Shown here one piece after another: positions 1-22,166 of a stretch of 44,446 nt of DNA. This DNA comes from Escherichia phage vB_EcoM_SHAK7704. Below the pieces are notes generated by a model, which had not been told where the DNA came from, ran no database searches, and saw only the letters and a program-made list of their open reading frames with translations. Location of the stretch: sequence record OR594181; one strand, 5' to 3'. The translations under genes and the position numbers were made by a program. How positions within the stretch are numbered: the first letter of the stretch is position 1; every line of letters begins with the position of its first letter.

Positions 1-1896
1 ATGGCTAAGGCAAGAGAATCACAAGCGGAGGCCCTTGCCAGATGGGAGATACTACAGGAGTTACAGCAGACCTTTCCTTACACAGCGGAAGGTTTGCTTC
101 TCTTTGCAGACACAGTTATTCATAACTTAATTGCAGGCAACCCTCATCTGATTCGTATGCAGGCTGATATCTTGAAGTTCCTATTCTACGGACACAAGTA
201 TCGCCTCATCGAAGCGCCTCGTGGTATCGCTAAGACAACACTATCAGCAATCTATACAGTATTCCGTATCATTCATGAACCGCATAAGCGTATCATGGTT
301 GTATCCCAAAACGCCAAGCGAGCAGAGGAAATCGCAGGTTGGGTAGTTAAAATCTTCCGTGGCCTAGACTTTCTTGAGTTTATGCTACCGGACATCTACG
401 CAGGGGACCGTGCCTCAGTTAAGGCATTTGAGATTCATTACACCCTACGTGGCAGTGACAAGTCGCCTTCTGTGTCTTGTTACTCAATCGAAGCAGGTAT
501 GCAGGGTGCGCGTGCAGATATCATCCTAGCAGATGACGTTGAGTCAATGCAGAATGCTCGTACAGCGGCAGGACGTGCCTTGCTTGAGGAACTGACCAAG
601 GAGTTTGAATCTATTAACCAGTTTGGTGATATTATCTACCTTGGTACTCCTCAGAACGTAAACTCTATCTACAATAACCTACCTGCTCGTGGTTACTCTG
701 TTCGTATCTGGACTGCACGTTATCCCTCAGTGGAGCAGGAGCAATGCTATGGTGACTTCCTTGCACCTATGATTGTGCAGGATATGAAGGACAACCCAGC
801 ACTTCGCTCAGGGTATGGCTTGGATGGCAATAGTGGTGCCCCTTGTGCACCTGAAATGTATGATGATGATGTACTGATTGAGAAGGAAATCTCGCAGGGT
901 GCGGCTAAGTTCCAGCTTCAGTTCATGCTTAACACTCGCATGATGGATGCTGACCGCTATCCGCTACGCCTGAACAACCTCATCTTCACTTCATTCGGTA
1001 CAGAGGAAGTCCCTGTGATGCCTACGTGGAGCAATGATTCCATCAATATTATTGGCGATGCACCGAAGTATGGCAATAAGCCTACAGACTTCATGTATCG
1101 ACCTGTGGCTCGCCCGTATGAATGGGGCGCTGTCACTCGTAAGATTATGTATATTGACCCTGCTGGTGGCGGTAAGAATGGGGATGAAACGGGTGTGGCT
1201 ATCGTCTTCCTGCACGGCACATTCATTTACGTGTACCAGTGCTTCGGTGTGCCAGGCGGATATCGCGAATCATCCCTGAATCGCATTGTGCAGGCCGCAA
1301 AGCAGGCGGGTGTTAAAGAGGTATTCATTGAAAAGAACTTTGGTCATGGCGCATTTGAGGCCGTTATAAAGCCATACTTTGAACGAGAGTGGCCTGTGAC
1401 TCTGGAGGAAGATTACGCCACCGGACAGAAAGAGTTGCGTATCATTGAAACACTAGAGCCACTAATGGCGGCCCACAGGCTCATCTTCAACGCAGAGATG
1501 GTCAAGTCTGATTTTGAGTCGGTACAGCGCTATCCGCTTGAACTACGCATGTCATACAGCCTTTTCAATCAAATGTCGAACATCACGATTGAGAAGAACA
1601 GCCTACGACACGATGACCGCTTAGACGCTCTGTATGGTGCTATACGGCAATTAACTTCTCAGATAGACTATGACGAGGTTACACGGATTAATCGCCTCAG
1701 AGCGCAGGAGATGCGCGATTACATCCATGCTATGAACACACCTCACCTCCGTAGGGCAATGCTCTATGGAGATTATGGCACTGAGCGAAGAGTAACCAAC
1801 ACTTCCGTGGCTATGCAGCAAAGAGTATACGGTCAGAATTACAGGAGTAAATCGGCAAGCAGAAATACACTTTCTGCAAGGATTTCAAGGATTTAG
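1..1896 (+). CDS. Terminase large subunit (T7 gp19-like)
   Basis: 631 aa; motifs matching T7 gp19 as recalled (RGIAKT, DKSPSV, ADIILADDVE, IIYLGTPQ, LQFMLN, RYPLRL, HDDRLDAL). Confidence 0.9.
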   Translation: MAKARESQAEALARWEILQELQQTFPYTAEGLLLFADTVIHNLIAGNPHLIRMQADILKFLFYGHKYRLIEAPRGIAKTTLSAIYTVFRIIHEPHKRIMVVSQNAKRAEEIAGWVVKIFRGLDFLEFMLPDIYAGDRASVKAFEIHYTLRGSDKSPSVSCYSIEAGMQGARADIILADDVESMQNARTAAGRALLEELTKEFESINQFGDIIYLGTPQNVNSIYNNLPARGYSVRIWTARYPSVEQEQCYGDFLAPMIVQDMKDNPALRSGYGLDGNSGAPCAPEMYDDDVLIEKEISQGAAKFQLQFMLNTRMMDADRYPLRLNNLIFTSFGTEEVPVMPTWSNDSINIIGDAPKYGNKPTDFMYRPVARPYEWGAVTRKIMYIDPAGGGKNGDETGVAIVFLHGTFIYVYQCFGVPGGYRESSLNRIVQAAKQAGVKEVFIEKNFGHGAFEAVIKPYFEREWPVTLEEDYATGQKELRIIETLEPLMAAHRLIFNAEMVKSDFESVQRYPLELRMSYSLFNQMSNITIEKNSLRHDDRLDALYGAIRQLTSQIDYDEVTRINRLRAQEMRDYIHAMNTPHLRRAMLYGDYGTERRVTNTSVAMQQRVYGQNYRSKSASRNTLSARISRI

Positions 1897-1897
1897 T

Positions 1898-1915
1898 ATT
1901 TACTGGACACTATAG
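1898..1915 (+). promoter_or_regulatory. Phage RNAP promoter ATTTACTGGACACTATAG
   Basis: 18-mer matching the consensus repeated across the window; immediately after the terminase stop. Confidence 0.7.
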
Positions 1916-1991
1916 GAGGAAGACCAAGAGAATAAAGGAATATTATAGGATAATATAGGATTACCTATGTTATATAGGTACACCTTATTAT

Positions 1992-2020
1992 GAGGGTACT
2001 CCTGTACCCTCTTCTTATCT
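1992..2020 (+). terminator. Promoter-proximal hairpin GAGGGTAC-tcct-GTACCCTC followed by T-rich run
   Basis: Perfect 8-bp stem, then ttcttatct; about 80 nt downstream of the promoter +1 and upstream of the 2054 ORF. Confidence 0.4.
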
Positions 2021-2053
2021 ACTTCATTATTTACTAGAAACAAGGAGTATAGA

Positions 2054-2335
2054 ATGGCTAATAATTATAGTGATCAACCACTAACAGGTCGATATGATCG
2101 AAAGCAGGAGACACCTGTAAGTGAAGCGTTAATGCTCCCTGTTGTTACAGAGGAGTCTATTAAGAAGAAAGCCAATGTTATCAATGATGCAACCAAATCT
2201 GGTAAACAGAAAGCATCAATGGTGTGTCGTCCTGTAGGTGGCACTCTTGAGATTGCCATTGCTACTGGCAGCAGAGAGGATGCAGATTGGTTGTCTGTTA
2301 AAATGGATGGCGTTGGTCTTATTACACCGGCTTAA
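2054..2335 (+). CDS. Hypothetical protein, paralog A of a three-gene family
   Basis: 93 aa; AAGGAG RBS; shares an INxxxxSGKQ...IAxGS..D.W domain with the next two ORFs. Confidence 0.6.
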   Translation: MANNYSDQPLTGRYDRKQETPVSEALMLPVVTEESIKKKANVINDATKSGKQKASMVCRPVGGTLEIAIATGSREDADWLSVKMDGVGLITPA

Positions 2336-2351
2336 TAAAGGAGAAGATAAT

Positions 2352-2636
2352 ATGTCTAAGTATGGCGATGCAGGTACTACTGGTCAGGCTTTTCGTGTAA
2401 AAGCAGTACAAACTATTGCAACTGCAATCCCTATGCCTATCGTGGCAGAAGCTGACCTTAAAAAGAAAGATCATCCAATTAATATTGAACACCTATCTGG
2501 TAAGCAGAAAGGTGCTATGGTGGTTGTAGATAAAGGAGATAATAGCCTTTATATTGCTATTGCACGTGGTTCTGCACCAACTGACCAGTGGGATGTAACT
2601 ACTATGGAAGCTGTACCTGTAACACCAGGAGCTTAA
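2352..2636 (+). CDS. Hypothetical protein, paralog B
   Basis: 94 aa from ATG 2352 with AAGGAG RBS; same conserved domain as paralogs A and C. Confidence 0.6.
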   Translation: MSKYGDAGTTGQAFRVKAVQTIATAIPMPIVAEADLKKKDHPINIEHLSGKQKGAMVVVDKGDNSLYIAIARGSAPTDQWDVTTMEAVPVTPGA

Positions 2637-2637
2637 T

Positions 2638-3327
2638 ATGCTGGGAGTAACAGGACAACGCAATAAGAATGTAGCCACCAAAGTGGTGGCTGATTTAGCT
2701 ACTGCTGCTACTGTCGAGGAATTACGAAACCAACATAGCTCTATTAACCGTGCTGACCTTTCTGGTAAACAAGAAGGTTCCGCCGTTATTATTAAGAAAG
2801 AAGATGGGAATTATTCTATCTTTGTAGCAACAGGAAGCAAGCCGACTGATGTGTGGAAAGAGTTGTCTCCAACAATACCAGAGCAAGAGATGCCTGCTGA
2901 ATATATTGATATGATTGATGTTCAAATTCATCAAGATTCTGCAAGCAACTTACATATAGACTCTTCTCGCACTAGTTTAATACAAACACCAATGTGGGAT
3001 ACTGAAGGTGAGTTGTTATTCCGTAATACACTAAGTGCAACATGTTCTTGTACTATTCTTGTTGATGGTGCGTCTGGTGTTCGTCAGGATTTTACTTTTA
3101 AGATTAATGGACTTTTAGAGCAGGAAGAGCAGTATTATGATATTGACACACTTATGTGCTCTATTCACTCTGCAACAACAACTAATGGCCTTACCTTGTG
3201 TATGCCAGATGCTAAAAGTGCAAAGACTAATAAAGTGGTAGTTAAGATCGACACTATGCAGTCATTAGCTATGAGCTTTGATCTTAACTTCCTTGTAGAA
3301 TGGACGTCACCAACGAGGTTACTATAA
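2638..3327 (+). CDS. Hypothetical protein, paralog C (family domain plus ~140-aa C-terminal extension)
   Basis: 229 aa; N-terminal domain homologous to A and B; stop overlaps the endolysin start (TAATG). Confidence 0.6.
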   Translation: MLGVTGQRNKNVATKVVADLATAATVEELRNQHSSINRADLSGKQEGSAVIIKKEDGNYSIFVATGSKPTDVWKELSPTIPEQEMPAEYIDMIDVQIHQDSASNLHIDSSRTSLIQTPMWDTEGELLFRNTLSATCSCTILVDGASGVRQDFTFKINGLLEQEEQYYDIDTLMCSIHSATTTNGLTLCMPDAKSAKTNKVVVKIDTMQSLAMSFDLNFLVEWTSPTRLL

Positions 3328-3671
3328 TGCTAAATCAATACTTCAAGCGTAAAGAATTTGCTTGCCGTTGTGGGTGCGGTACATCCACTGTTGATGCTGA
3401 GTTACTACAGGTAGTAACAGATGTGCGTGAGCACTTTGGTACTCCTGTTGTTATCACTTCTGGTCATCGCTGCGCCAAGCACAATGCTAATGTAGGTGGA
3501 GCTAAGAACTCTATGCATCTTACTGGTAAGGCTGCTGACATTAAGGTACGAGGCATCTTACCTTCTGATGTACATAAGTACCTTACTGATAAGTACCAAG
3601 GCAAGTATGGTATTGGTAAATATACCTCCTTTACTCATATTGATGTACGTGACGGGTGTGCACGATGGTAG
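3327..3671 (+). CDS. Endolysin, zinc peptidase M15-like fold
   Basis: 114 aa from ATG 3327 (ORF track starts at 3300 but has no RBS); SGHRC...H...D...H motif; sits beside the spanins. Confidence 0.7.
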   Translation: MLNQYFKRKEFACRCGCGTSTVDAELLQVVTDVREHFGTPVVITSGHRCAKHNANVGGAKNSMHLTGKAADIKVRGILPSDVHKYLTDKYQGKYGIGKYTSFTHIDVRDGCARW

Positions 3672-3779
3672 GTTGTGTTGCATGGTGTGAACGCATGGTT
3701 GCTAAGGCTTCAGAGGAAGGCAACTATGAAGATTGGCAGAACTACTCAACTTTATTAGCTCAATGGAAAGGGAGATGCA

Positions 3780-3929
3780 ATGAAAAAGCTGTTCAAATCT
3801 AAGAAGGTTGTAGGTGCACTAGTTGCATTGGCAATTGCTCTTGTTTCTGTAGGTCTTGGTGTAGACCTTGGCTCTGGCACGGAATCCTCTGTGACAGATG
3901 TGGTCTGCCAAGTGATCACCTGTGAATAA
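3780..3929 (+). CDS. Small hydrophobic peptide (49 aa), possible lysis regulator
   Basis: Not in the ORF track (under 60 aa); AAGGGAG RBS 9 nt upstream; MKKLFKSKKVVGALVALAIALVSVGLGV hydrophobic segment. Confidence 0.4.
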   Translation: MKKLFKSKKVVGALVALAIALVSVGLGVDLGSGTESSVTDVVCQVITCE

Positions 3930-4143
3930 GTTTCTAGAAGTGCTGGCAGGTCTTATTGGCCTGCTTGTCTCTGCTAAGAAGAAACAAGAAGAGAAGGAGG
4001 CACAAAGTGAAGCGAATCATGCTAGCGACAACCCTGCTGATTGGTTCGCTGATCATTTCAGGGTGTCAGACGGCGTTACCAGAGAATCCAAAGGTGAAGC
4101 CTCTGAAGCCGACGCTTACGGCAGTCTACGAGGTGGACGATAA
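3922..4143 (+). CDS. i-spanin (Rz-like), candidate
   Basis: 73 aa, GTG start; N-terminal transmembrane segment FLEVLAGLIGLLVSA then charged domain; overlaps the o-spanin ORF. Confidence 0.45.
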   Translation: MNKFLEVLAGLIGLLVSAKKKQEEKEAQSEANHASDNPADWFADHFRVSDGVTRESKGEASEADAYGSLRGGR

Positions 4144-4216
4144 AGTCTGCTTCAGTAAGCCTGACGCTACAAAATTAGGTCTGTACATTCTCTCGCTAGA
4201 ACGCGGGTATAATTAA
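4007..4216 (+). CDS. o-spanin (Rz1-like outer-membrane lipoprotein)
   Basis: GTG 4007 with GGAGG 6 nt upstream (alternative ATG 4019); signal peptide with lipobox IISGC; proline-rich mature part; +1 frame over the i-spanin. Confidence 0.6.
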   Translation: MKRIMLATTLLIGSLIISGCQTALPENPKVKPLKPTLTAVYEVDDKVCFSKPDATKLGLYILSLERGYN

Positions 4217-4245
4217 TACATAGTTTTATGTATCAGTGTCTTACG

Positions 4246-4263
4246 ATTTACTGGACACTATAG
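4246..4263 (+). promoter_or_regulatory. Phage RNAP promoter ATTTACTGGACACTATAG
   Basis: Exact consensus 18-mer upstream of the tailspike genes. Confidence 0.7.
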
Positions 4264-4347
4264 AAGAGATAAGATAGTGCCGTTCTTTTGAGCGGCCTAT
4301 TACTAGCCAATCTTCATAGGGAGGATTGGGAAGTAATAGGAGAGTAT

Positions 4348-4683
4348 ATGGCTAAGTTAACTAAACCCAAGACAACTGGCTTACTACATAGAGATACTGT
4401 ACTAGCTACATTATTGGATAATTTACTATCTAAAAGGCGTGTTACATTTGAAGGTGTAGTTCCAAGTGAAGATACTAAAATTGAGATAGAAGTACCTGCA
4501 ACAGGAGATTTAGATTCTTCGTGGGCATCACTTGTATCATTAAGTACACCTACACTTTGTACAGCTTGGATTACTAAAGTGTCAGATACTAGATTAGAAG
4601 TACATGTGTTCCATACAGCACAAGTTGAAATAGACATAGATGTAGATGTTTACATTCTAGGTAAACACATTGTCAGTGCGTAA
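4348..4683 (+). CDS. Short tailspike-like protein (111 aa) in the second-tailspike position
   Basis: ATG 4348 with GGGAGG/AGGAG RBS; sits directly upstream of the endosialidase, where K1-5-type phages carry a second tailspike. Confidence 0.5.
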   Translation: MAKLTKPKTTGLLHRDTVLATLLDNLLSKRRVTFEGVVPSEDTKIEIEVPATGDLDSSWASLVSLSTPTLCTAWITKVSDTRLEVHVFHTAQVEIDIDVDVYILGKHIVSA

Positions 4684-4750
4684 GCACTGCTTTTCGCGCA
4701 ACTTTTCTTAAAGGTTATCATGATGGTAGCCTTTCAGAAAAGGAGGTTAC

Positions 4751-7186
4751 ATGATTCAAAGACTAGGTTCTTCATTAGTTAAATTCAAGAGTAAAATAGC
4801 AGGTGCAATCTGGCGTAACTTGGATGACAAGCTCACCGAGGTTGTATCGCTTAAAGATTTTGGAGCCAAAGGTGATGGTAAGACAAACGACCAAGATGCA
4901 GTAAATGCAGCGATGGCTTCAGGTAAGAGAATTGACGGTGCTGGTGCTACTTACAAAGTATCATCTTTACCTGATATGGAGCGATTCTATAACACCCGCT
5001 TCGTATGGGAACGTTTAGCAGGTCAACCTCTTTACTATGTGAGTAAAGGTTTTATCAATGGTGAACTATATAAAATCACGGATAACCCTTATTACAATGC
5101 TTGGCCTCAAGACAAAGCGTTTGTATATGAGAACGTGATATATGCACCTTACATGGGTAGTGACCGTCATGGTGTTAGTCGTCTGCATGTATCATGGGTT
5201 AAGTCTGGTGACGATGGTCAAACATGGTCTACTCCAGAGTGGTTAACTGATCTGCATCCAGATTACCCTACAGTGAACTATCATTGTATGAGTATGGGTG
5301 TATGTCGCAACCGTCTGTTTGCCATGATTGAAACACGTACTTTAGCCAAGAACGAACTAACCAATTGTGCATTGTGGGATCGTCCTATGTCTCGTAGTCT
5401 GCATCTTACTGGTGGTATCACTAAGGCTGCAAATCAGCGTTATGCAACAATCCATGTACCTGATCACGGATTATTCGTGGGCGATTTTGTTAGCTTCTCT
5501 AATTCTGCGGTAACAGGTGTAACTGGTGATATGAAAGTTGCAACAGTTATAGATAAGGACAACTTCACGGTTCTTACAGCCAATCAGCAGACCTCTGATT
5601 TGAACAATGCTGGAAAGAATTGGCACATGGGCACTTCCTTCCATAAGTCTCCATGGCGTAAGACAGATCTTGGCCTGATACCTCGTGTTACTGAAGTTCA
5701 TAGCTTTGCTACTATTGATAACAATGGCTTTGTTATGGGTTATCACCAAGGCGACGTAGCTCCACGCGAAGTTGGTCTTTTCTACTTCCCTGATGCTTTT
5801 AACAATCCATCTAATTATGTTCGTCGTCAGATACCATCTGAGTACGAACCGGATGCGGCAGAGCCATGCATCAAGTACTATGACGGTGTGTTATACCTTA
5901 TCACTCGTGGTACTCGTGGTGACAGGCTTGGAAGCTCTTTGCATCGCAGTAGAGATATAGGTCAAACTTGGGAGTCACTAAGATTTCCACATAATGTGCA
6001 TCATACTACTTTACCGTTTGCTAAGGTAGGAGATGATCTTATTATGTTTGGTTCAGAACGTGCAGAAAATGAATGGGAAGCAGGTGCACCTGATGATCGT
6101 TACAAGGCATCTTATCCCCGCACCTTCTATGCACGATTGAATGTAAACAAGTGGAGTGCAGATGACATTGAATGGGTTAACATCACAGACCAAATCTATC
6201 AGGGTGACATTGTTAACTCCAGTGTAGGTGTAGGTTCGGTGGTAGTTAAAGATAGTTACATTTACTATATCTTTGGTGGTGAAAACCATTTCAACCCAAT
6301 GACTTATGGTGACAACAAAGATAAAGACCCATTTATTGGACATGGACACCCTACTGATATATACTGCTATAAGATGCAGATTGCAAATGACAGTCGTGTA
6401 TCTCGTAAGTTTACATATGGTGCAACTCCTGGTCAGGCTATACCTACTTTCATGGGTACTGATGGTATTCGCACTATTCCTGCTCCACTTCACTTATCAG
6501 GAGAGGTAGTTGCCGCAGATATGACTGTCGAACACCTTACCTTGAAGGCAAGTACAAGTGCTAATATTCGCTCAGAGATGCTGATGGAAGGTGAATATGG
6601 GTTCATTGGTAAGACTATACCAACGGATAACCCAACCGCCCAACGTGTTATCATCTCTGGTGGAGAGGGTACAGCAGCAGATACCGGTGCGCAAATTACC
6701 TTACATGGAGCAGGTTCTAGCACTTCTAGACGCGCAGTATATAATGCCAATGAGCACTTGTTCCAAAGTGGAGCTATCATGCCATACAATGATAACGTGT
6801 ATCCTGCTGGCGGCCCTCGTAATAGATTCACTACTATCCATCTTACAAGTGACCCTATTATTACGTCTGATGCCACTCATAAGTATGGATCACAAGGTAT
6901 TGATGAGAGTGTACTAAAGGCATGGGGTAAGGTTAGCTTCAAGCAGTACAAGTTGATTGGTGAGATGTCTCGTGGTGTGCACCACACTCACTTTGGTGTA
7001 TTGGCACAAGACATTGTAGCTGCTTTTGCATCCGAAGGGTTAGATGCAATCGACTTCGGCATTGTCTCCTTCGAAGAAGGTCAGTTTGGTGTTAGATATA
7101 GTGAAATCTTAATCTTGGAGGCTGCTTATACTCGCTATCGTTTAGACAAGTTAGAGGAGATGTATGCCACTAATAAAAGCAGTTAA
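4751..7186 (+). CDS. Endosialidase tailspike (endo-N-acetylneuraminidase) with C-terminal intramolecular chaperone domain
   Basis: 811 aa; sequence recalled as near-identical to K1E/K1-5 endosialidase; C-terminal chaperone-domain motifs; strong AAAGGAGG RBS. Confidence 0.9.
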   Translation: MIQRLGSSLVKFKSKIAGAIWRNLDDKLTEVVSLKDFGAKGDGKTNDQDAVNAAMASGKRIDGAGATYKVSSLPDMERFYNTRFVWERLAGQPLYYVSKGFINGELYKITDNPYYNAWPQDKAFVYENVIYAPYMGSDRHGVSRLHVSWVKSGDDGQTWSTPEWLTDLHPDYPTVNYHCMSMGVCRNRLFAMIETRTLAKNELTNCALWDRPMSRSLHLTGGITKAANQRYATIHVPDHGLFVGDFVSFSNSAVTGVTGDMKVATVIDKDNFTVLTANQQTSDLNNAGKNWHMGTSFHKSPWRKTDLGLIPRVTEVHSFATIDNNGFVMGYHQGDVAPREVGLFYFPDAFNNPSNYVRRQIPSEYEPDAAEPCIKYYDGVLYLITRGTRGDRLGSSLHRSRDIGQTWESLRFPHNVHHTTLPFAKVGDDLIMFGSERAENEWEAGAPDDRYKASYPRTFYARLNVNKWSADDIEWVNITDQIYQGDIVNSSVGVGSVVVKDSYIYYIFGGENHFNPMTYGDNKDKDPFIGHGHPTDIYCYKMQIANDSRVSRKFTYGATPGQAIPTFMGTDGIRTIPAPLHLSGEVVAADMTVEHLTLKASTSANIRSEMLMEGEYGFIGKTIPTDNPTAQRVIISGGEGTAADTGAQITLHGAGSSTSRRAVYNANEHLFQSGAIMPYNDNVYPAGGPRNRFTTIHLTSDPIITSDATHKYGSQGIDESVLKAWGKVSFKQYKLIGEMSRGVHHTHFGVLAQDIVAAFASEGLDAIDFGIVSFEEGQFGVRYSEILILEAAYTRYRLDKLEEMYATNKSS

Positions 7187-7397
7187 GCAAGCGGCTGTAC
7201 GCCAGAACACAGAAGAACTTATTCAATCAGGACGTGACCATAAGCAGGCTTATGCCATTGCTAAGGATGTACAACGTCGTGCCGGATTTCCCCCATATGG
7301 GGGCCGCGCTGCGGTTGGCTTGGGAATTGGGCTAGGCTGGGCCGTCTTCGACGGGTGGCCTAGAGCTTGCCGAGGTCTGCTCTTAGTGGCTGCACAA

Positions 7398-7531
7398 GGA
7401 GAACGCCTAGGAAGCGCTAGGGCACGCCTTAGTATTGGACAAGGTGATTGCCTTAGTGCAACCGCTTAGGGCTTACACAGGCCGTTTTAGGGCCATTCCT
7501 GAGCGTTTGACAAGGTGGGCGTGGGTGGGCT
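7398..7531 (+). repeat. Direct repeat copy 1 (134 bp), putative right terminal repeat
   Basis: Identical base-for-base to 7532-7665 in direct tandem. Confidence 0.7.
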
Positions 7532-7665
7532 GGAGAACGCCTAGGAAGCGCTAGGGCACGCCTTAGTATTGGACAAGGTGATTGCCTTAGTGCAACCGCT
7601 TAGGGCTTACACAGGCCGTTTTAGGGCCATTCCTGAGCGTTTGACAAGGTGGGCGTGGGTGGGCT
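7532..7665 (+). repeat. Direct repeat copy 2 (134 bp), putative left terminal repeat
   Basis: Identical to 7398-7531; followed at 7666 by ATCTGTT. Confidence 0.7.
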
Positions 7666-7716
7666 ATCTGTTCGTTTCGTTCACTCCGCTTGCGCTCCGT
7701 TCACTCGCTCACGTGT

Positions 7717-7845
7717 ACCTTAGGTTATTCCTTGATGGATGGCTTAGGTTAGCCTTAGTGGGCTGCCTTAGTTAAAGCCTTAGTGCTTAGCTTAGTATCA
7801 ACTTAGTAGTGTACCTTAGTAAGTCTTAGTGTCTTCTCTTAGTGA
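7717..7845 (+). repeat. Array of about 10 short CTTAGT-type repeats next to the terminal repeat
   Basis: ccttagg, gcttagg, ccttagt, gcttagt, acttagt, tcttagt recur every 8-15 bp. Confidence 0.6.
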
Positions 7846-8027
7846 TTGCATAGCTAAAGCTATAAGATGCAATTAGGTCGCGGTCGGTAGACCGCTAAGA
7901 GTAGGTAATAGTAATAAGATGCAGTAGGAGGAACACCAGAAACCTAGCCAACCTAGCCTATCCTAGCTCTGTATCTATTGCTTTCCTTAGTCTCACATGT
8001 TAGACAACCTATGTTTATCTTAGTAGT

Positions 8028-8043
8028 TGTGACATGTATCACA
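8028..8043 (+). promoter_or_regulatory. CRP-like site TGTGA-N6-TCACA
   Basis: tgtgacatgtatcaca matches both CRP half-sites; centred about 72 bp upstream of the predicted early start site. Confidence 0.3.
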
Positions 8044-8072
8044 TAAATAATCTATCTTAGTGAAACTTAGTG

Positions 8073-8101
8073 TTGACATAGGCAATCAACTGGTATACAT
8101 T
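8073..8101 (+). promoter_or_regulatory. Host sigma70-type early promoter
   Basis: TTGACA at 8073-8078, 17-bp spacer, TACATT at 8096-8101; about 400 bp inside the left genome end. Confidence 0.5.
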
Positions 8102-8251
8102 AGCAATCACTGAGACGGACCTAGCAAGCTGTCTCAGGTTATAAGCAGGAGAATTGATGCGTAAGCCATAGCTAGTGGATGTAGTCGCATGAAGGCTTGA
8201 GTAAGGGGCCGCTTAATACCTTCTTCCTCTGGAGACAACGCTTATAACACT

Positions 8252-8264
8252 GCTCTTTAACAAT
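8252..8264 (+). promoter_or_regulatory. Conserved early intergenic 13-mer GCTCTTTAACAAT (copy 1), candidate RNase III site
   Basis: One of five near-identical copies, each 40-70 nt upstream of an early gene start and flanked by imperfect dyads. Confidence 0.4.
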
Positions 8265-8322
8265 CTGCTTAGTGTAACCTATGTATGCCGTGGTTAATTA
8301 CTTATTGAATGAAGGATTAACT

Positions 8323-8550
8323 ATGAAAGTACAAGTAAAAGCGTACAACATGCCAGTTGATGAGATTCAGCACTTCCTCGATAAAGGTTATGACTTATGT
8401 AAGATGCGCACACCAGATAACTATGACTACTCACCTAAATATCTGCATTATATTGATCTTAAGATGGGTAAGAAGTTAGTTATTACAGGTACTGCATATA
8501 ACCGCATTATCAAAGTTCTTAAAGAGGGTGCTAATCATGACATTAAATAA
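8323..8550 (+). CDS. Early hypothetical protein
   Basis: ATG 8323 with GAAGGA RBS (track ORF starts at 8281 without RBS). Confidence 0.5.
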   Translation: MKVQVKAYNMPVDEIQHFLDKGYDLCKMRTPDNYDYSPKYLHYIDLKMGKKLVITGTAYNRIIKVLKEGANHDIK

Positions 8551-8716
8551 CCGTGAACTGTCCGTTCTCTTCACTCTGTTGTGCTACATGATTCGTAACA
8601 ACGAATTACTTACAGATGATGAGTTAGCCTTGTATCACCGCTTTCTTAACGAAGGTTGGACCGATACGGTTAATCAATACCGTAACATGATAGATGAGTT
8701 GAGGGAGGGTAGATAA
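8537..8716 (+). CDS. Early hypothetical protein
   Basis: ATG 8537 after GAGGG RBS; stop overlaps the next start. Confidence 0.45.
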   Translation: MTLNNRELSVLFTLLCYMIRNNELLTDDELALYHRFLNEGWTDTVNQYRNMIDELREGR

Positions 8717-8940
8717 TGTATCAACATGAGGTATTCTTTGAATCATCTAGCGAAGCTATTCGCTTCCACGATGATATGCTACAAGCTGGCGTAGGTGTTG
8801 ATGTACATCACTTCCTACTAGATTACGACACTGAATATCACCGAGTTACCTTAGTATCTGAGTATGACAACCAAGTCATTACTGAGTATCTAGGTAGTGA
8901 AGATTATGATTACGATGAAGTAATCACGACAAATCTCTAA
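8716..8940 (+). CDS. Early hypothetical acidic protein
   Basis: 74 aa; TAATG stop-start overlap; Asp/Glu/Tyr-rich. Confidence 0.5.
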   Translation: MYQHEVFFESSSEAIRFHDDMLQAGVGVDVHHFLLDYDTEYHRVTLVSEYDNQVITEYLGSEDYDYDEVITTNL

Positions 8941-9010
8941 ATTAACTATTGACAACCACGGCATACAAGGTTACATTAAGCATCAAGACGGCGACGTCTT
9001 TAAACATCAC

Positions 9011-9023
9011 GCTCTTTAACAAT
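9011..9023 (+). promoter_or_regulatory. Conserved 13-mer GCTCTTTAACAAT (copy 2)
   Basis: Preceded by hairpin AAGACG-gcga-CGTCTT. Confidence 0.4.
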
Positions 9024-9168
9024 AGAGATTAGGCCGGGAGTATCGGTGTGAGGGACAAGGAGGCTTTCCCACAATTAAACTGGTGGCAAAAGGATTGCCC
9101 AGCTTTATAGCCCAGTTATGGATAGCAATAGCGTAAGGATGGCAGCACACCCGCGAGTCTAATCTCTA

Positions 9169-9181
9169 GCTCTTTAACAAT
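9169..9181 (+). promoter_or_regulatory. Conserved 13-mer GCTCTTTAACAAT (copy 3)
   Basis: Upstream of the 9225 ORF. Confidence 0.4.
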
Positions 9182-9224
9182 CGGGCTAGTGCCTTGGTAG
9201 GCTAACTACTTACTAAGGTGAACT

Positions 9225-9437
9225 ATGAACTACTGCGACATCGCTCACGAATTACGCATGGAACGTGAGAAACAAGAGAAGCGGATTATCAAGAAGATGG
9301 CTGTACTGCTTGCACACTATAAGGCAGACAAACAGCCAACACATGATGAGTTCGTGGACTTCTGTAACATGTATCTTAATGTGAGTAAGGCCACTGGTTA
9401 CAGATGGCTTAAAGCACTGAATGATGGAGAATTGTAG
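9225..9437 (+). CDS. Early small protein with possible HTH-like segment
   Basis: 70 aa; AAGGTG RBS; C-terminal SKATGYRWLKAL resembles excisionase/AlpA-type DNA-binding helices. Confidence 0.5.
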   Translation: MNYCDIAHELRMEREKQEKRIIKKMAVLLAHYKADKQPTHDEFVDFCNMYLNVSKATGYRWLKALNDGEL

Positions 9438-9480
9438 CAATAAGCCAGCTTAATAGCTGGCCTATCAAGGCACTAACCTA

Positions 9481-9493
9481 GCCCTTTAACAAT
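9481..9493 (+). promoter_or_regulatory. Conserved 13-mer GCCCTTTAACAAT (copy 4) inside a bulged dyad
   Basis: Flanked by cctatcaaggcac / gtgtcttgatagg imperfect inverted repeat; preceded by hairpin GCCAGCT-taat-AGCTGGC. Confidence 0.45.
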
Positions 9494-9539
9494 CTGGTTT
9501 TGTGTCTTGATAGGCTTACTAACAGAAAGGTAAATTATC

Positions 9540-9707
9540 ATGGAAACTTTAATCGTTACCACTACAATCAACGGCGTAAGTATCAGCATAACTAAGTATT
9601 CTTCCGAAGAGTATGAAGTGAATCACGGAATAGCTGCTATGGTGTATGACAACTTGGCAGATGCCGTGGAGCATTGGATACAGTCATGTAAGGCTGCAAT
9701 TAAGTAG
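9540..9707 (+). CDS. Early hypothetical protein (55 aa)
   Basis: Not in the ORF track; AAAGG RBS; METLIVTTTINGVSISITKY... Confidence 0.4.
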   Translation: METLIVTTTINGVSISITKYSSEEYEVNHGIAAMVYDNLADAVEHWIQSCKAAIK

Positions 9708-9752
9708 GAAAGAGAAGGCTGGCACTAGCCAGCCTATCAAGGCACAAGCCAC

Positions 9753-9765
9753 GCTCTTTAACAAT
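9753..9765 (+). promoter_or_regulatory. Conserved 13-mer GCTCTTTAACAAT (copy 5)
   Basis: Preceded by hairpin GGCTGGC-acta-GCCAGCC; upstream of ocr. Confidence 0.4.
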
Positions 9766-9861
9766 ATGGGTAGTCGCTTCTTAGTCTGGATAGGTTAAAC
9801 CTAGGAGATTCTCTTGAGTCTCCTATAATGTAACCTAACTAACTAAATGAGGATTAATAAC

Positions 9862-10218
9862 ATGGCTATGTCTAATATGACTTACTCTCAGGTTTACAAC
9901 ACCGCTCATGCTGCATTAGTTGAACGTATCTGGGATGATGCTATTGATTGTATCGATAACGCACATGATGCAATCCATGAGGTGGCGGGTAGTGCTGTAC
10001 CAATCTATTATGCTGACATCTTCTCGGTGATGGCCAGTGAAGGCATCGACCACTTCTTCGAGGATTCTGGCTTAATGCCAGACACTAAGGATGTGACGGT
10101 CGTACTACAAGCCCGTATTTATGAACAACTCACCATTGATTTATGGGAACGTGTTCAAGATATGATTGATGCGTACATCGATTCCGCTGAGGATTCAGAA
10201 GAAGAGGAGGAAGAATAA
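9862..10218 (+). CDS. ocr: Ocr-like DNA-mimic anti-restriction protein (T7 gene 0.3 homolog)
   Basis: MAMSNMTY...[15 protein letters not shown]...[13 protein letters not shown]...[15 protein letters not shown] with acidic C-terminus, closely matching T7 Ocr as recalled; start at ATG 9862. Confidence 0.85.
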
Positions 10219-10324
10219 AGATGGAAAGGCAATATAACTTTATCTTCTCAGACGGTGTAACCCTGAAATGTTCCTTACGATTTGCGCAGATTCGTGAGGA
10301 AGTACTAGGAACTACATACAAGCT

Positions 10325-10342
10325 ATTTAGCTGACACTATAA
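10325..10342 (+). promoter_or_regulatory. Variant phage promoter ATTTAGCTGACACTATAA (SP6-like upstream half)
   Basis: Matches the SP6 consensus ATTTAGGTGACACTATAG except G to C at one position and A in place of the +1 G. Confidence 0.4.
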
Positions 10343-10410
10343 GAGAAGACTTAACAAGGCGTTGCTACGGTAGCGCCTGATTAAACTTTCACTTACTAGG
10401 AGTTAAGATT

Positions 10411-10638
10411 ATGGATTTAGATAGCATCATTATGGCATTTGCTCTTATTGGCTTAAGCTGGTGCTCCTATCACCTTTACCGTGAGTTCTTATTTGATAAA
10501 GCTAAACGCAAACTAAGAAAGGAAGGCGGTAATTACCTTTGTATAAGAGGTGGCTTAGTCGAATACATTGCACCTAACGGCATGGAGTGCGCCATTAACA
10601 AAGATGCATTTATAGAGACGTGGCATTACATCAAGTAG
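10411..10638 (+). CDS. Early small membrane protein
   Basis: 75 aa; N-terminal transmembrane segment IIMAFALIGLSWCSY; GGAG RBS. Confidence 0.55.
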   Translation: MDLDSIIMAFALIGLSWCSYHLYREFLFDKAKRKLRKEGGNYLCIRGGLVEYIAPNGMECAINKDAFIETWHYIK

Positions 10639-10702
10639 CTAGCCTATAGCCTACCTGTGTGGGCTATGTGATATTTACTTACCACTATATAAGGTGACTA
10701 TT

Positions 10703-11587
10703 ATGACTACTGAAAACACCCTCCTGTCTGTCCGCGAAGCTGCAACCGCTGAGATTAAGCAGCATTTGGATAATATCGGCACTTCTTACATCAAAGTAGG
10801 TGCTTGTCTGAATGAGTTACGCGGAGACTTCGAAGGTCAAAAAGAGTTCTTAGCCTATGTTGAAGCAGAGTTCGGCATCAAGAAAGCACAATGCTACAAG
10901 CTGATGAGTGTAGCCCGTGTCTTTGAAGGTGACGAACGATTCAAAGGCGTGGCTATGCGTGTAATGCTGGCGCTTGTTCCTTTCGCTGATGAGAGTATCA
11001 TCATGGAGAAGGCCGCAGAACTTGCCGCAGAGGGCAAGCTGGACACTAACGCCGTAAACGCCCTAATTGAGTCTAAGAAAGAGCCAAAGGCCGAGACGGT
11101 ACAATCTAAGGCTGAGCCAGTAAAACCGCAGGAGAACGCGGCTGAGGCCGCAGAATCACAGGAAACGCAAGCGCCGCAGGTAGTGCCGCCAATGAGTGAG
11201 CCGGACACCGACGAATCCGCACCGTGGGAGGGCGAAAGCAAGCCGGAAGCACCTAAGGCTGCGCCTCTGGACAACACTGCTAACACAGAGAACGCCGCCA
11301 TGGCTGGCCTGTTGGCACAAATTAAGGCACTGACTGAGCAATTACAGGCGGCTAACGACCGCATCGCAGCTCTAACCAGTGCACGTGAAAGCAAGAAGGC
11401 AGCCGCGCCTATGCTCCCACAATTCAAATCCAAATGTTTCTATGCTCGCTTGGGTTTGAGTGCTGAGGAGGCAGAGAAGAAAACAGCAGTGAACAAGGCA
11501 CGCCGCGAACTGGTTAAACTGGGATACGGTGAAGGCCATGAGGCATGGCCCTTAATCTCTGAGGCAGTAGAAGAATTAACTAAGTAA
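10703..11587 (+). CDS. Early hypothetical protein with Pro/Glu/Ala/Lys-rich linker
   Basis: ATG 10703 after AAGG; globular N-terminal ~120 aa, low-complexity middle, conserved-looking C-terminal ~60 aa; directly upstream of the RNAP gene. Confidence 0.6.
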   Translation: MTTENTLLSVREAATAEIKQHLDNIGTSYIKVGACLNELRGDFEGQKEFLAYVEAEFGIKKAQCYKLMSVARVFEGDERFKGVAMRVMLALVPFADESIIMEKAAELAAEGKLDTNAVNALIESKKEPKAETVQSKAEPVKPQENAAEAAESQETQAPQVVPPMSEPDTDESAPWEGESKPEAPKAAPLDNTANTENAAMAGLLAQIKALTEQLQAANDRIAALTSARESKKAAAPMLPQFKSKCFYARLGLSAEEAEKKTAVNKARRELVKLGYGEGHEAWPLISEAVEELTK

Positions 11588-11650
11588 CCTTATCGGTGGC
11601 ATCTTCTTAGGTGTCACCTATTAAGGTTTCTTTCACTAGGAGTAAACAAG

Positions 11651-14278
11651 ATGCAAGACCTACACGCTATTCAACTTCAACTTGAAGAAGAAATGTTTAA
11701 CGGCGGTATCCGTCGCTTTGAAGCGGACCAACAACGCCAGATTGCATCCGGTAATGAATCAGACACGGCATGGAATCGCCGTTTATTGTCCGAGTTAATC
11801 GCGCCAATGGCTGAAGGTATTCAGGCATACAAGGAAGAGTATGAAGGTAAAAGAGGCCGTGCACCGCGTGCATTAGCTTTCATTAACTGCGTAGAAAACG
11901 AAGTGGCAGCATATATCACGATGAAAATCGTTATGGATATGCTGAATACAGACGTTACCTTACAAGCAATCGCTATGAATGTAGCGGACCGCATCGAAGA
12001 CCAAGTACGTTTTAGCAAGCTGGAAGGTCACGCAGCTAAGTACTTTGAGAAAGTGAAGAAGTCGCTTAAGGCTAGCAAGACTAAATCTTATCGTCATGCG
12101 CACAACGTAGCGGTAGTAGCTGAGAAATCTGTTGCTGACCGTGACGCGGATTTCTCCCGTTGGGAGGCATGGCCTAAAGATACCTTGCTACAAATCGGTA
12201 TAACCTTGCTAGAAATACTGGAAAATAGTGTATTCTTCAATGGTCAGCCTGTCTTTCTTCGCACCTTGCGCACTAATGGTGGCAAGCATGGCGTTTACTA
12301 CTTACAGACCAGTGAACACGTAGGGGAATGGATTACAGCATTTAAAGAACATGTAGCGCAACTTAGCCCGGCTTATGCACCTTGCGTTATACCTCCGCGT
12401 CCGTGGGTTTCTCCTTTTAATGGCGGTTTTCACACTGAGAAGGTAGCAAGTCGTGTGCGTCTTGTTAAAGGCAGCCGTGAACACGTCCGCAAGCTGACCA
12501 AAAAGCAAATGCCAGCGGTTTACAAGGCTGTTAACGCTTTGCAGGCGACTAAATGGCAGGTTAACAAGGAAGTTTTACAGGTTGTTGAGGACGTAATACG
12601 GCTTGATTTAGGCTATGGCGTACCTTCCTTCAAACCACTCATCGACCGCGAGAACAAGCCAGCTAATCCGGTGCCGTTAGAGTTCCAGCACCTGCGAGGC
12701 CGTGAACTGAAAGAAATGTTAACACCGGAACAATGGCAAGCCTTCATCAACTGGAAAGGTGAATGCACCAAGCTGTATACCGCTGAGACTAAGCGCGGCA
12801 GCAAATCGGCGGCGACCGTCCGCATGGTAGGGCAGGCCCGTAAATACAGCCGATTTGACGCAATATACTTCGTGTATGCTCTGGACAGCCGCAGCCGCGT
12901 CTACGCGCAATCTAGCACGCTCTCTCCACAATCAAACGACTTAGGCAAGGCATTGCTCCGTTTTACCGAAGGGCAGCGTCTTGATAGCGCTGAGGCGCTT
13001 AAGTGGTTTTTGGTGAACGGGGCTAATAACTGGGGTTGGGATAAGAAAACTTTTGACGTGCGCACCGCTAACGTGCTGGATAGTGAATTTCAAGACATGT
13101 GCCGCGACATTGCAGCGGATCCGCTGACCTTCACTCAATGGGTAAATGCCGACTCCCCTTACGGCTTCCTTGCATGGTGCTTTGAATATGCGCGTTATCT
13201 GGATGCACTGGATGAAGGCACGCAAGACCAATTCATGACGCACCTCCCAGTCCATCAAGATGGTAGTTGTTCTGGTATCCAGCACTACAGTGCTATGCTA
13301 CGCGATGCAGTAGGTGCGAAAGCGGTAAACCTTAAGCCCTCTGACTCACCTCAAGATATTTATGGTGCCGTTGCGCAGGTAGTAATTCAGAAGAATTATG
13401 CATACATGAATGCAGAGGATGCGGAAACCTTCACTTCTGGCAGCGTGACTTTAACAGGTGCAGAACTTCGTAGCATGGCTAGTGCGTGGGATATGATAGG
13501 AATCACTCGCGGCCTGACCAAAAAGCCTGTAATGACACTACCTTATGGCAGCACACGTCTAACCTGCCGTGAATCAGTGATTGATTATATCGTTGATTTG
13601 GAAGAAAAAGAGGCCCAACGGGCTATTGCGGAAGGGCGTACCGCCAATCCTGTACATCCTTTTGATAATGACCGCAAAGACAGCCTGACACCTAGCGCAG
13701 CTTATAACTATATGACAGCTTTAATCTGGCCTTCTATTTCGGAAGTGGTTAAAGCTCCTATAGTGGCAATGAAAATGATTCGTCAGCTTGCACGTTTCGC
13801 AGCTAAAAGAAACGAAGGCTTAGAATATCCCTTACCAACTGGCTTCATCTTGCAACAAAAGATAATGGCTACCGATATGCTCCGCGTATCCACTTGCTTG
13901 ATGGGTGAAATCAAGATGAGTCTCCAGATTGAAACAGATGTAGTTGATGAAACGGCAATGATGGGTGCGGCTGCCCCTAACTTCGTCCATGGTCACGATG
14001 CTAGCCACCTGATTCTGACTGTATGTGACCTAGTGGATAAAGGTATTACATCCATTGCAGTCATCCATGATTCTTTCGGTACTCATGCAGGACGTACCGC
14101 AGACCTGCGGGATAGCTTAAGGGAAGAAATGGTTAAGATGTATCAAAACCATAATGCCCTGCAAAACCTGCTAGATGTGCACGAAGAGCGTTGGTTAGTA
14201 GACACCGGAATCCAAGTACCAGAGCAAGGAGAGTTTGACCTTAACGAAATCTTAGTTTCAGACTATTGTTTCGCATAA
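11651..14278 (+). CDS. Single-subunit DNA-dependent RNA polymerase (T7 gene 1-like)
   Basis: 875 aa; C-terminus ...DYCFA like T7 RNAP ...FAFA; preceded by early genes. Confidence 0.95.
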
Positions 14279-14286
14279 TATTAATA

Positions 14287-14318
14287 GGCCATTCCTTAGG
14301 GAGTGGCCTTTTTCTTTA
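14287..14318 (+). terminator. Intrinsic terminator after the RNAP gene
   Basis: GGCCATTCC-ttag-GGAGTGGCC stem followed by TTTTTCTTT. Confidence 0.65.
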
Positions 14319-14351
14319 CCTACTACCTGTAACATTTCATTAACATAAAGT

Positions 14352-14367
14352 GTCTCACATGTGAGAC
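14352..14367 (+). repeat. 16-bp perfect palindrome GTCTCACATGTGAGAC (copy a)
   Basis: Directly upstream of the promoter at 14370. Confidence 0.8.
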
Positions 14368-14369
14368 TT

Positions 14370-14387
14370 ATTTACCGGACACTATAG
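14370..14387 (+). promoter_or_regulatory. Phage RNAP promoter ATTTACCGGACACTATAG
   Basis: Consensus with one substitution (C at position 7). Confidence 0.65.
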
Positions 14388-14543
14388 GATAGCCGTCGGA
14401 GACGGGAAAGAAAGGGAAGATAAAGGATATAAAGGAAGTAATAGGTATTAAAGGTTATATAGGTTATCTAGGAATACCTAGGAATACCTATTACCTTCTT
14501 CCTTCCTCTTATTACCACTTAGAGGAAGGGCAGACCTAGGTTG
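14388..14543 (+). other. Origin-like repeat region between two phage promoters
   Basis: AT-rich; AAAGGA iterons; tandem ctaggaataccta/ggaataccta; inverted repeat GGAAGTAATAGGTATT...AATACCTATTACCTTCC. Confidence 0.45.
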
Positions 14544-14559
14544 TCTCACATGTGAGACT
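14544..14559 (+). repeat. 16-bp palindrome GTCTCACATGTGAGAC (copy b)
   Basis: Directly upstream of the promoter at 14564. Confidence 0.8.
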
Positions 14560-14563
14560 TCGT

Positions 14564-14581
14564 ATTTACCGGACAGTATAG
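14564..14581 (+). promoter_or_regulatory. Phage RNAP promoter variant ATTTACCGGACAGTATAG
   Basis: Two substitutions from consensus; precedes the 14612 ORF. Confidence 0.5.
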
Positions 14582-14611
14582 ATAAGATTAACTCACTTTG
14601 GAGATTTAACC

Positions 14612-14740
14612 ATGCGTAACTTTGAGAAGATGGCCCGTAAAGCTAACCGTTTTGACATAGAAGAAGGGCAGAAGAAAGGCAAGAAGCTGAATAAACCTGT
14701 CCGTGATCGTGCATCTAAACGCGCTGCGTGGGAGTTCTAA
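14612..14740 (+). CDS. Small basic protein (42 aa), T7 gp1.1-like by position
   Basis: MRNFEKMARKANRF..., Lys/Arg-rich; first gene after RNAP; GGAG RBS; the gp1.1 likeness is from memory. Confidence 0.5.
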   Translation: MRNFEKMARKANRFDIEEGQKKGKKLNKPVRDRASKRAAWEF

Positions 14741-14743
14741 GTT

Positions 14744-14962
14744 ATGGCTAAATACAGAATCAAGACCTGTTTAAATAGTCACGGGCAAGAGTGCTACATA
14801 GTGCAACGTAAAGTATTAGGCTTAATATGGGTCACGTGTATGATGCCTATTGGCTATACTGATACAGAGGCTATCTTCTGCACCGAAAGGGATGCAAAGA
14901 AGTTTATCTCTGAGCGTAGAAAAGCTGACTCTTACCAACCCAGAACTATTAAGGTGAACTAA
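14744..14962 (+). CDS. Hypothetical protein
   Basis: 72 aa; stop overlaps the primase/helicase start. Confidence 0.5.
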   Translation: MAKYRIKTCLNSHGQECYIVQRKVLGLIWVTCMMPIGYTDTEAIFCTERDAKKFISERRKADSYQPRTIKVN

Positions 14963-16950: not shown

Positions 16951-17111
16951 TGGAAATTATTAAACCAGTATTGAATATCGGTATTGAGATCCTATTCATG
17001 CTTGTGATCGCAGATTATGCTGCACGATATGGATTCAAGAAAGCGGTGAAACTTATCGTTGCATCTGGTTTTCTTATGTCAATGTTCTTTATTGTAACAC
17101 GCCTTATCTAG
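16950..17111 (+). CDS. Small membrane protein (53 aa)
   Basis: Not in the ORF track; TAATG overlap with the helicase stop; two hydrophobic segments. Confidence 0.4.
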   Translation: MEIIKPVLNIGIEILFMLVIADYAARYGFKKAVKLIVASGFLMSMFFIVTRLI

Positions 17112-17124
17112 TGTATTTATCAGG

Positions 17125-17148
17125 GCTTGTCTCACATGTGAGACAGGC
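17125..17148 (+). terminator. Palindrome-family hairpin with T-rich tail (copy c)
   Basis: GCTTGTCTCACATGTGAGACAGGC followed by tcttatt. Confidence 0.45.
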
Positions 17149-17183
17149 TCTTATTAAGTACATTAAATAACTGGAGATTGATT

Positions 17184-18292: not shown

Positions 18293-18298
18293 GTAAAG

Positions 18299-18322
18299 GG
18301 TTGTCTCACACGTGAGACAGCC
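18299..18322 (+). terminator. Palindrome-family hairpin (CACGTG core variant) with T-rich tail (copy d)
   Basis: GGTTGTCTCACACGTGAGACAGCC followed by tttcatc. Confidence 0.45.
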
Positions 18323-18350
18323 TTTCATCATATTGATTGGGAGGTATTAA

Positions 18351-21036: not shown

Positions 21037-21318
21037 TGGACAGGTTTGATGTTGTTTGCCTATTCTCTATCTTCTTTCTTATATTCCTTATGCTTGCTTG
21101 CTATGGAAGTATGCGATTAGATATACCTGATGAAGAGGAGGGTTACGATTGATGCAAACTGCTTTTATCATTCTTGGGATCATATTATTTATGGTAGTAT
21201 TCTGGGCTTTCTCTGGCATTGACCCAGATTGTGATGGTAACTACGACTGAGTTATACTCAAGGTCACTTACGAGTGGCCTTTATGAATAACTTATTCCTA
21301 CTTATTTTGTCTAACATG

Positions 21319-21336
21319 ATTTACTGGACACTATAG
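21319..21336 (+). promoter_or_regulatory. Phage RNAP promoter ATTTACTGGACACTATAG
   Basis: Exact consensus. Confidence 0.7.
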
Positions 21337-21406
21337 AAGGAAAGCCTAGGTAATCTAGGTTTATAAGGTAGTATAGGTAATTAAGTAAATATAGGAGATA
21401 TAAAAT

Positions 21407-21789: not shown

Positions 21790-22089
21790 ATGATGGAAGA
21801 AGTGATTCAAGCTAAACATGTAGGTATCATCTTTCGTGATCTAGAGCAGCGTAAAGTTGCAGGTCACACTCGTCTGGCTAAAGAAGACGATACAGCAATC
21901 ACTACTGTGGAACAAGCAGATGCCTATCGTGGTCCAGAGTTTACTCAAGGTGAAACTTGTCATCAATTGAGCCTTTCACTTTGTGACACTATGGCTAGTG
22001 TAAATGTACAAGAGGTTGAAGATGGTGAATGTGTTAGTTATGTCTACCCTCTCGATACTATTGCACGTATTAAGGTAGTTCATAAGTAA
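21790..22089 (+). CDS. Hypothetical protein
   Basis: 99 aa. Confidence 0.55.
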   Translation: MMEEVIQAKHVGIIFRDLEQRKVAGHTRLAKEDDTAITTVEQADAYRGPEFTQGETCHQLSLSLCDTMASVNVQEVEDGECVSYVYPLDTIARIKVVHK

Positions 22090-22104: not shown

Positions 22105-22166
22105 GAACAATAGGTCGGCTTAGTTCGGCCTATGATTGTGTAGTGTAACAATAGGAGACTAAATAA

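Follow-up and report, generated by a model that had tools for sequence, protein, structure and literature searches.

Does the exact tandem of two 134-bp copies in sequence record OR594181 of Escherichia phage vB_EcoM_SHAK7704 reflect the ends of the phage genome joined by rotation, a genuine internal duplication or an error made when the sequence was assembled? This question was addressed by analysing the window, i.e. the whole stretch of 44,446 nt, together with relatives and independent assemblies. The initial annotation had reported two identical copies in direct tandem, which is borne out by string comparison, in which every base of 7398-7531 equals its counterpart in 7532-7665 without any spacer, and by Tandem Repeats Finder (period 134, 2.0 copies, 100% matches, score 536). 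The 134-bp pair was also returned by the repeat-family search (family D2). The unit starts with GGAGAACGCC, and both copies finish with GGGTGGGCT. The repeat does not extend on either side, not even by one base; the left flanks differ (...GCACAA before copy 1, ...GGGCT before copy 2), as do the right flanks (GGAGAA after copy 1, ATCTGT after copy 2). No further occurrence of the unit was found in the 44,446-nt window. An exact tandem of 134 nt cannot arise by chance.

The window represents a complete K1E-like genome (Vectrevirus, SP6 group) with 94-98% identity to Vectrevirus records, and it contains 12 SP6-type phage promoters with the consensus ATTTACTGGACACTATAGAAG, every one on the + strand, in line with the previous assignment to T7/SP6-like phages. 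The rotation suspected in the initial annotation was likewise confirmed. Position 1 of the record is the ATG of the large terminase gene terL (Table 1), hence, the sequence was handled as a circle and rotated computationally. In agreement, position 44446 of the window aligns to K1E 37389, and K1E gp40A (terL) begins at 37390. The Pfam domain Terminase-T7_RNaseH-like was found on the identical terL gene of an independent assembly, the Logan contig described below. As a side observation, terL is uninterrupted in the window, whereas the corresponding region of K1E (AM084415, 37390-40034) is split into gp40A and gp40B by the putative homing endonuclease gene gp40.5. The endosialidase tailspike gene, for which the Pfam domains End_N_terminal, End_beta_propel, End_tail_spike and Peptidase_S74 were detected on an identical protein, is the final large gene ahead of the right end of the genome. 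The duplication is situated directly downstream of it, and the physical ends of the linear relatives map to the same site just past the endosialidase. Biologically, the region is the site in a K1E-like phage where the terminal repeat and the concatemer junction are located.

Table 1. Features of the window that are relevant to the duplicated region (DTR, direct terminal repeat; L014, coordinates in the Logan contig SRR23502025_193).
Feature	Position	Strand	Remark
Large terminase gene (terL), 631 aa	1..1896	+	ORF; ATG is record position 1
SP6-type promoters 1-6	1896-1926, 4244-4274, 10671-10701, 14368-14398, 14562-14592, 16896-16926	+	
SP6-type promoters 7-12	21317-21347, 22086-22116, 23232-23262, 26400-26430, 31481-31511, 44237-44267	+	
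Endosialidase tailspike, 811 aa	4751..7186	+	ORF; homologue of K1E gp47
First ~40 codons of the conserved 49-codon ORF	7164..7283	+	Truncated, fused into the repeat
Omission junction CGT[GCC]	7278..7283		342 nt missing, L014 ~12531/12534 to 12872/12875; GCC microhomology, 3 nt
DTR positions 17-267 of ~268 nt	7281..7531	+	Exactly 251 nt; anomaly at each side
Palindrome CCCCCATATGGGGG	7290..7303		Near DTR left end; conserved in relatives (multiple alignment)
Copy 1 of the 134-bp unit	7398..7531	+	DTR positions 134-267; ends ...GGGCT
Copy 2 of the 134-bp unit	7532..7665	+	Colinear with the left unique region that follows; same in all relatives
ATCTGTT, core of the class II T7-type RNA polymerase pause/termination signal	7666..7672	+	Directly after the DTR
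CTTAG(T) short-repeat array	7719..7842	+	Just inside the left unique region; more copies in the DTR
TTGTCTCACATGTGAGACA palindromes	17120-17154, 18294-18328, 39634-39668, 14534-14568; related copies 7989-8018, 14339-14368		

Exact DTRs are present in four linear relatives, namely K1E (288 bp), mutPK1A2 (286 bp), Mt1B1_P10 (267 bp) and KAW1A4500 (267 bp). The DTRs of all four start with (T)CTCGCCCTCGCCCTCGCCGGATTTCCCCCATATGGGG and end with ...GGGCTA, and the left copy is followed by TCTGTT; the motif TCTCGCCCTCGCCCTC opens three of the four records, and the fourth has CTCGCCC... one base in. Projected on the window, these repeats correspond to 7281-7531 plus 16 nt that are absent from the window and one A. 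The block 7281-7531 aligns with positions 17-287 of K1E, 16-285 of mutPK1A2, 17-266 of KAW1A4500 and 2-252 of Mt1B1_P10. By homology, the 134-bp unit comprises positions 134-267 of a DTR of ~268 nt, i.e. only its 3' half, and matches K1E 156-287, mutPK1A2 152-285 and KAW1A4500 133-266. It does not cover a whole DTR, which has 267-288 bp in the relatives, and the proximal DTR part (7281-7397) occurs only once. The unit opens with GGAGAACGCC instead of the conserved left terminus (T)CTCGCCCTCGCCCTC. Both copies, in contrast, close with the conserved right terminus ...GGGCT(A), and after copy 2 the sequence goes on with ATCTGTT. Compared with the ...GGGCTA end in the four records, copy 1 lacks the last base, and the joint between the copies, GGGCT/GGAGAAC, lies at most 1 nt from the right physical end of the linear relatives. 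With regard to this last base, the terminal repeat of KAW1A4500 has been published as 266 bp (PMC6563267), and the exact repeat in its record (MK373773.1) is 267 bp, ending GGGCTA; this one-base ambiguity of the right terminus concerns the same base that is missing from copy 1 of the window.

Compared with the DTRs of K1E/SP6-like phages, the locus shares its site (downstream of the endosialidase and small ORFs, upstream of the early region), the 93-99% identity of the unit to their 3' half, the right boundary GGGCT(A) followed by TCTGTT, the internal palindrome and the CTTAG motifs. It differs from them in that the tandem is restricted to the distal 134 nt and lies inside a rotated record, and in that the first 16-19 nt of the repeat, including the conserved terminus, are absent. 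Two complete DTRs abutted by rotation would be expected to read ...GGGCTA/TCTCGCCCTCGCC..., whereas the window reads ...GGGCT/GGAGAACG. The initial annotation had interpreted the copies as probably both terminal repeats, joined. The place that it assigned to the tandem is right, since the joint falls on the right end of the relatives to within 1 nt, but the copies are not the two terminal repeats, because the unit is the 3' half of the DTR and the beginning of the DTR is not contained in the window. An arrangement of two complete DTRs in tandem was rejected on the same grounds.

A second anomaly is found upstream of the tandem. The homology of all relatives to the window breaks at 7280-7283, where they carry 225-449 extra bases. 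The left terminus TCTCGCCCTCGCCCTCGCC was not found anywhere in the window with up to three mismatches allowed; 16 fetched loci, the independent assembly included, do contain this motif. In the multiple alignment, all seven other genomes (7/7) continue in conserved form with ...CGTCGTGCC ATGAAGAAACCTTCTGCATCTTCTGCGTAAGCAGG..., which is the end of a 49-codon ORF, and only the window jumps to GGATTTCCCCC, its junction reading CGTCGTGCC/GGATTTCC. The break at 7283 was also considered as a natural mosaic boundary or a strain bubble, which was discarded because the seven aligned genomes are conserved for at least 70 nt beyond it. The missing 342 nt contain the last part of the small ORF, the canonical left terminus TCTCGCCCTCGCCCTC and ~320 nt of non-coding DNA. 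The independent assembly contains the intact 49-codon ORF (MPLIKAVKQ...QRRAMKKPSASSA, followed by the stop), and in five of five contigs obtained by exact-protein look-up the endosialidase gene is followed by an intact gene of 49 aa. In the window, the truncated ORF and the repeat together form a spurious 101-aa ORF (7164-7469), and the exact-protein look-up returned no match for this fusion.

Both anomalies were compared with an independent assembly. Using the endosialidase in an exact-protein look-up, a Logan contig of run SRR23502025 (SRR23502025_193, 44,670 nt) was found, of which positions 438-44670 were rebuilt with two further exact-protein look-ups. Over all retrieved bases (~44.0 kb), this contig is 100.000% identical to the window with 0 mismatches and 0 gaps, the matches spanning 39197-44446, 1-7283, 7281-7531 and 7532-38775 of the window. 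It departs from the window at two points only, as it contains one copy of the unit and 342 nt more. The sole copy of the unit is located at L014 12990-13123; the block 7281-7531 is 100% identical to L014 12873-13123, and L014 12990-22436 equals window 7532-16978 at 100%. The extra 342 nt (L014 ~12534-12872) contain the end that completes the small ORF and the canonical left terminus, which lies at L014 12857 (TCTCGCCC; complementary strand ...GGCGAGGGCGAGGGCGAGA), 268 nt upstream of the right end. The ends of the Logan contig overlap when mapped on the window, hence, the closed unit has ~44,654 nt, corresponding to 44,446 - 134 + 342. Since there are 0 mismatches, SRR23502025 probably derives from the same isolate as the record; the literature search turned up no paper on this run. 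The exact-protein look-up gave no match for the 982-aa gp35 homologue, because the Logan contig breaks inside this gene. The Logan contig, a de Bruijn contig with k = 31, passes unbroken through the region, which argues against a well-covered alternative junction in the reads of SRR23502025. Judged by this comparison, one of the two copies in the record is surplus, and the assembly of the same phage with a single copy speaks against the idea of two joined terminal repeats.

One could still assume that the phage possesses a DTR of only 134 bp, of which a complete right copy (7398-7531) and a left copy (7532-7665) were abutted by the rotation. Copy 1 indeed ends at most 1 nt from the right end of the relatives in a rotated record, the length of the DTR varies in the SP6 group (179 bp in UAB_Phi78, 267-288 bp in the relatives), and the absence of the canonical left terminus would demand a different left end if the record were correct. 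However, the left end would then be GGAGAACGCC..., which is mid-way in a sequence 93-99% identical to the DTRs of the relatives and unlike the conserved terminus TCTCGCCCTCGCCCTC. Moreover, in the identical independent assembly the conserved terminus precedes the right end by 268 nt, and a 134-bp DTR would need the 342-nt omission to be real. We regard this explanation as extremely improbable.

The survey of relatives and sequence collections gave the same picture as the Logan contig. In 60 of the 60 GenBank relatives listed, the 134-bp unit falls on a single interval of ~134 bp; the value "100% covered" in this listing does not indicate a tandem, because both halves of the query fall on the same interval. 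One copy of the unit together with the terminus was directly verified in five permuted GenBank relatives and four metagenome or Logan contigs, among them three near-identical metagenome contigs (95-99% identity). The duplication junction had 0 matches in IMG/VR and the JGI metagenomes, and the omission junction had 0 matches in IMG/VR. The tandem duplication was thus not seen in the independent assemblies, the relatives, IMG/VR or the JGI metagenomes searched. Two candidates were rejected in this context. The four pieces over 554 bp in vB_EcoP_K (KY295897), the one odd entry among the 60 relatives, could have represented joined DTRs, however, they are one DTR and a stray 61-bp fragment. An artefact of a pipeline common to unverified records rotated to terL (PhiNW-E1, Phi100-A and the OZ0357xx series) does not apply either, because these records are canonical with one copy and the terminus. 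Independently of the present question, vB_EcoP_K (KY295897.1, 37,775 bp), which is labelled a complete genome, looks scrambled: it is ~7 kb shorter than its relatives, its DTR region abuts the helicase gene in inverted order, and the 61-bp repeat fragment recurs ~430 bp downstream.

These data bear on the possibility of a genuine rearrangement, i.e. a viable mutant in which the concatemer junction has lost 342 bp including the left-end site and has gained the distal half of the repeat in tandem, for example if a mature right end was ligated to a left end that had been resected. End-joining would place a duplication junction at the mature right end, where it is observed, the phage encodes a DNA ligase, and there is a 3-nt microhomology at the deletion junction; this GCC would also fit a real deletion by illegitimate recombination. 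On the other hand, both changes are missing from an assembly that is otherwise identical in every base, from all relatives and from the public collections searched. The rearrangement would remove a terminus conserved in every relative and truncate a conserved ORF, and it would take two rare, mutually independent events within 251 nt, a spacing that coincides with a sequencing read length, in a genome without any point difference elsewhere. A derived stock that is free of SNPs and yet rearranged at its end is formally conceivable, however, we consider a genuine rearrangement highly unlikely.

We therefore favour an error of assembly or closure as the most likely explanation, given that a single copy was found when the same phage was assembled independently. 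The record very probably misassembles the end of the genome, so that the tandem would be an artefact at the DTR of a K1E-like phage rather than something contained in its DNA. The best reading of the duplication is that it represents neither two complete terminal repeats nor a genuine duplication. An artefact of this kind is expected to be absent from an independent assembly, as found in the one-copy Logan contig, and to consist of exact, abutting copies in a computationally rearranged record, as found here with 100% identity, no spacer and a start at the terL ATG. Furthermore, the two anomalies flank a single block, 7281-7531, of exactly 251 nt, which equals the MiSeq read length, and this block ends where the right end of the virion DNA falls.

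According to our proposal, the replicating genome unit would measure ~44,654 bp, its right and left unique regions being separated by one ~268-bp repeat (TCTCGCCCTCGCCCTC...GGGCTA), and the virion would carry the repeat at both ends, giving ~44,922 bp. Two errors would then have been introduced into the record. One would be the loss of 342 nt, which comprise the terminal part of the right unique region and the initial 16-19 nt of the repeat; the other is that the final 134 nt of the repeat would have been entered twice, with the joint exactly at the right end of the virion DNA. Reads piled up at this physical right end might have produced a contig end, which could have been joined to the other contig end with the 134-nt overlap left unmerged; the joined sequence might then have been treated as circular and rotated to terL, by which the error was moved to the interior. 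In a circular assembly with a collapsed DTR, virion molecules would end at both borders of the repeat; 16 nt inside the left border is where the omission stops, and the duplication junction is located on the right border. The exact software step is our inference. In this regard it has to be considered that 134 nt does not correspond to a usual assembler overlap, and that a 251-nt read starting from a right end ...GGGCTA, as present in four records, would cover repeat positions d18-d268 and not d17-d267, a shift of one base relative to the observed block.

A simpler version of an artefact would be the plain overlap of a circular contig, in which k or k-1 bases are repeated at an arbitrary break and rotated untrimmed, the genome ends being irrelevant. 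Such overlaps are common, the copies are exact and abutting in a rotated record, and a length of 134 would result as k-1 if k were 135, a setting that some assemblers allow for 251-nt reads. However, the usual assembler overlaps are 127 for SPAdes and 141 for MEGAHIT, and 134 matches neither of these defaults, hence, this simplest version would not readily fit. Moreover, the break lies at most 1 nt from the physical right end, for which the chance is ~1 in 15,000 if an arbitrary break in a circle of 44.6 kb is assumed, and the 342-nt omission exactly 251 nt upstream is left unexplained. A plain overlap is in our opinion very unlikely. The locus resembles an untrimmed circular-contig overlap (the "DTR" completeness flag) in having exact copies at the contig ends before rotation (start 7532, end 7531), and it differs in that the length is not a usual k and the break is at a real genome end instead of an arbitrary place.

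Artefacts of a related kind are known from T7-like phages, in which short-read assemblies contained spurious repeats near or within the DTRs in 7 of 10 phages, and in most of these the repeats were proved to be artefacts by Sanger sequencing (Elek et al. 2023, PMC10438801). As in these cases, the DTR region of the record analysed here contains an exact extra repeat, which an independent assembly does not show, and collapse of the DTR as well as placement of the repeat in the middle of a contig were routine in that study. There are also differences, because the repeats reported there have ~79 bp compared to 134 bp here, the 342-nt omission is found only here, and the artefact is deduced here by comparison whereas it was demonstrated there by Sanger sequencing.

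Several motifs are present in and around the repeat. The T7 genome has the palindrome CCCCCATAGGGGG near its left end, which the palindrome CCCCCATATGGGGG of the window resembles. The first A of the ATCTGTT motif is the final DTR base in the records of the relatives, and the presence of ATCTGTT at the right edge of the DTR is conserved in all aligned relatives. In the whole window this motif was found 7 times compared to 7.9 expected occurrences, i.e. it is not enriched, hence, only its position is meaningful. The T7 concatemer junction has one repeat between the units with ATCTGTT at the right edge; the independent assembly and all permuted relatives show the same arrangement, whereas the window has 1.5 repeats minus the left terminus. 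The T7 terminal repeat is also flanked by short-repeat arrays. The CTTAG motif occurs 18 times in 7281-7900 compared to 0.9 times expected for a uniform distribution (~20-fold), it spans 7382-7842 and is dense in 7719-7842, and this CTTAG(T) array is taken as analogous to the short-repeat arrays of T7. An Rfam scan of 6900-8400 (E ≤ 1) gave no match, and the sigma-70 and terminator scans gave no significant result within the repeat; the promoter-like sites at 8029-8101, two in number, are at background level.

Two further observations were made elsewhere in the genome. First, there is a conserved family of palindromes, TTGTCTCACATGTGAGACA, with four to six copies, several of which are situated beside SP6-type promoters; these may represent candidate terminators, processing sites or operator-like elements. 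Second, a mosaic segment was noticed at 2610-3324 of the window. Three metagenome relatives that are otherwise 99% identical, ENA ERZ28588574, ENA ERZ27238488 and Logan SRR8427707, have ~88% identity over 1-2640 and are unaligned over ~2640-3324.

Collectively, the finding is mainly one of data quality, as the record has 134 surplus nt, lacks 342 nt including the left terminus and contains a spurious 101-aa ORF. Repeat counters, terminus callers and gene-content comparisons would be misled by it. When an untrimmed contig is rotated to terL, an artefact of its end lands inside the sequence and mimics a real duplication. The practical value is the correction of record OR594181. If the record were correct instead, which we consider most improbable, a viable phage lacking 342 bp with the left-end site would mature at a relocated left end, GGAGAACG..., and carry a new 134-bp repeat; in that case, the left-end cut of SP6-type phages would not be fixed by the conserved terminus sequence. 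With the favoured explanation of an assembly or closure error, the locus has little biological weight, because the short DTR and concatemer junction of K1E-like phages are well known. By analogy to T7, the conserved position of the pause signal at the right edge of the repeat suggests that the coupling of transcription pausing to concatemer processing may also exist in SP6-type phages.
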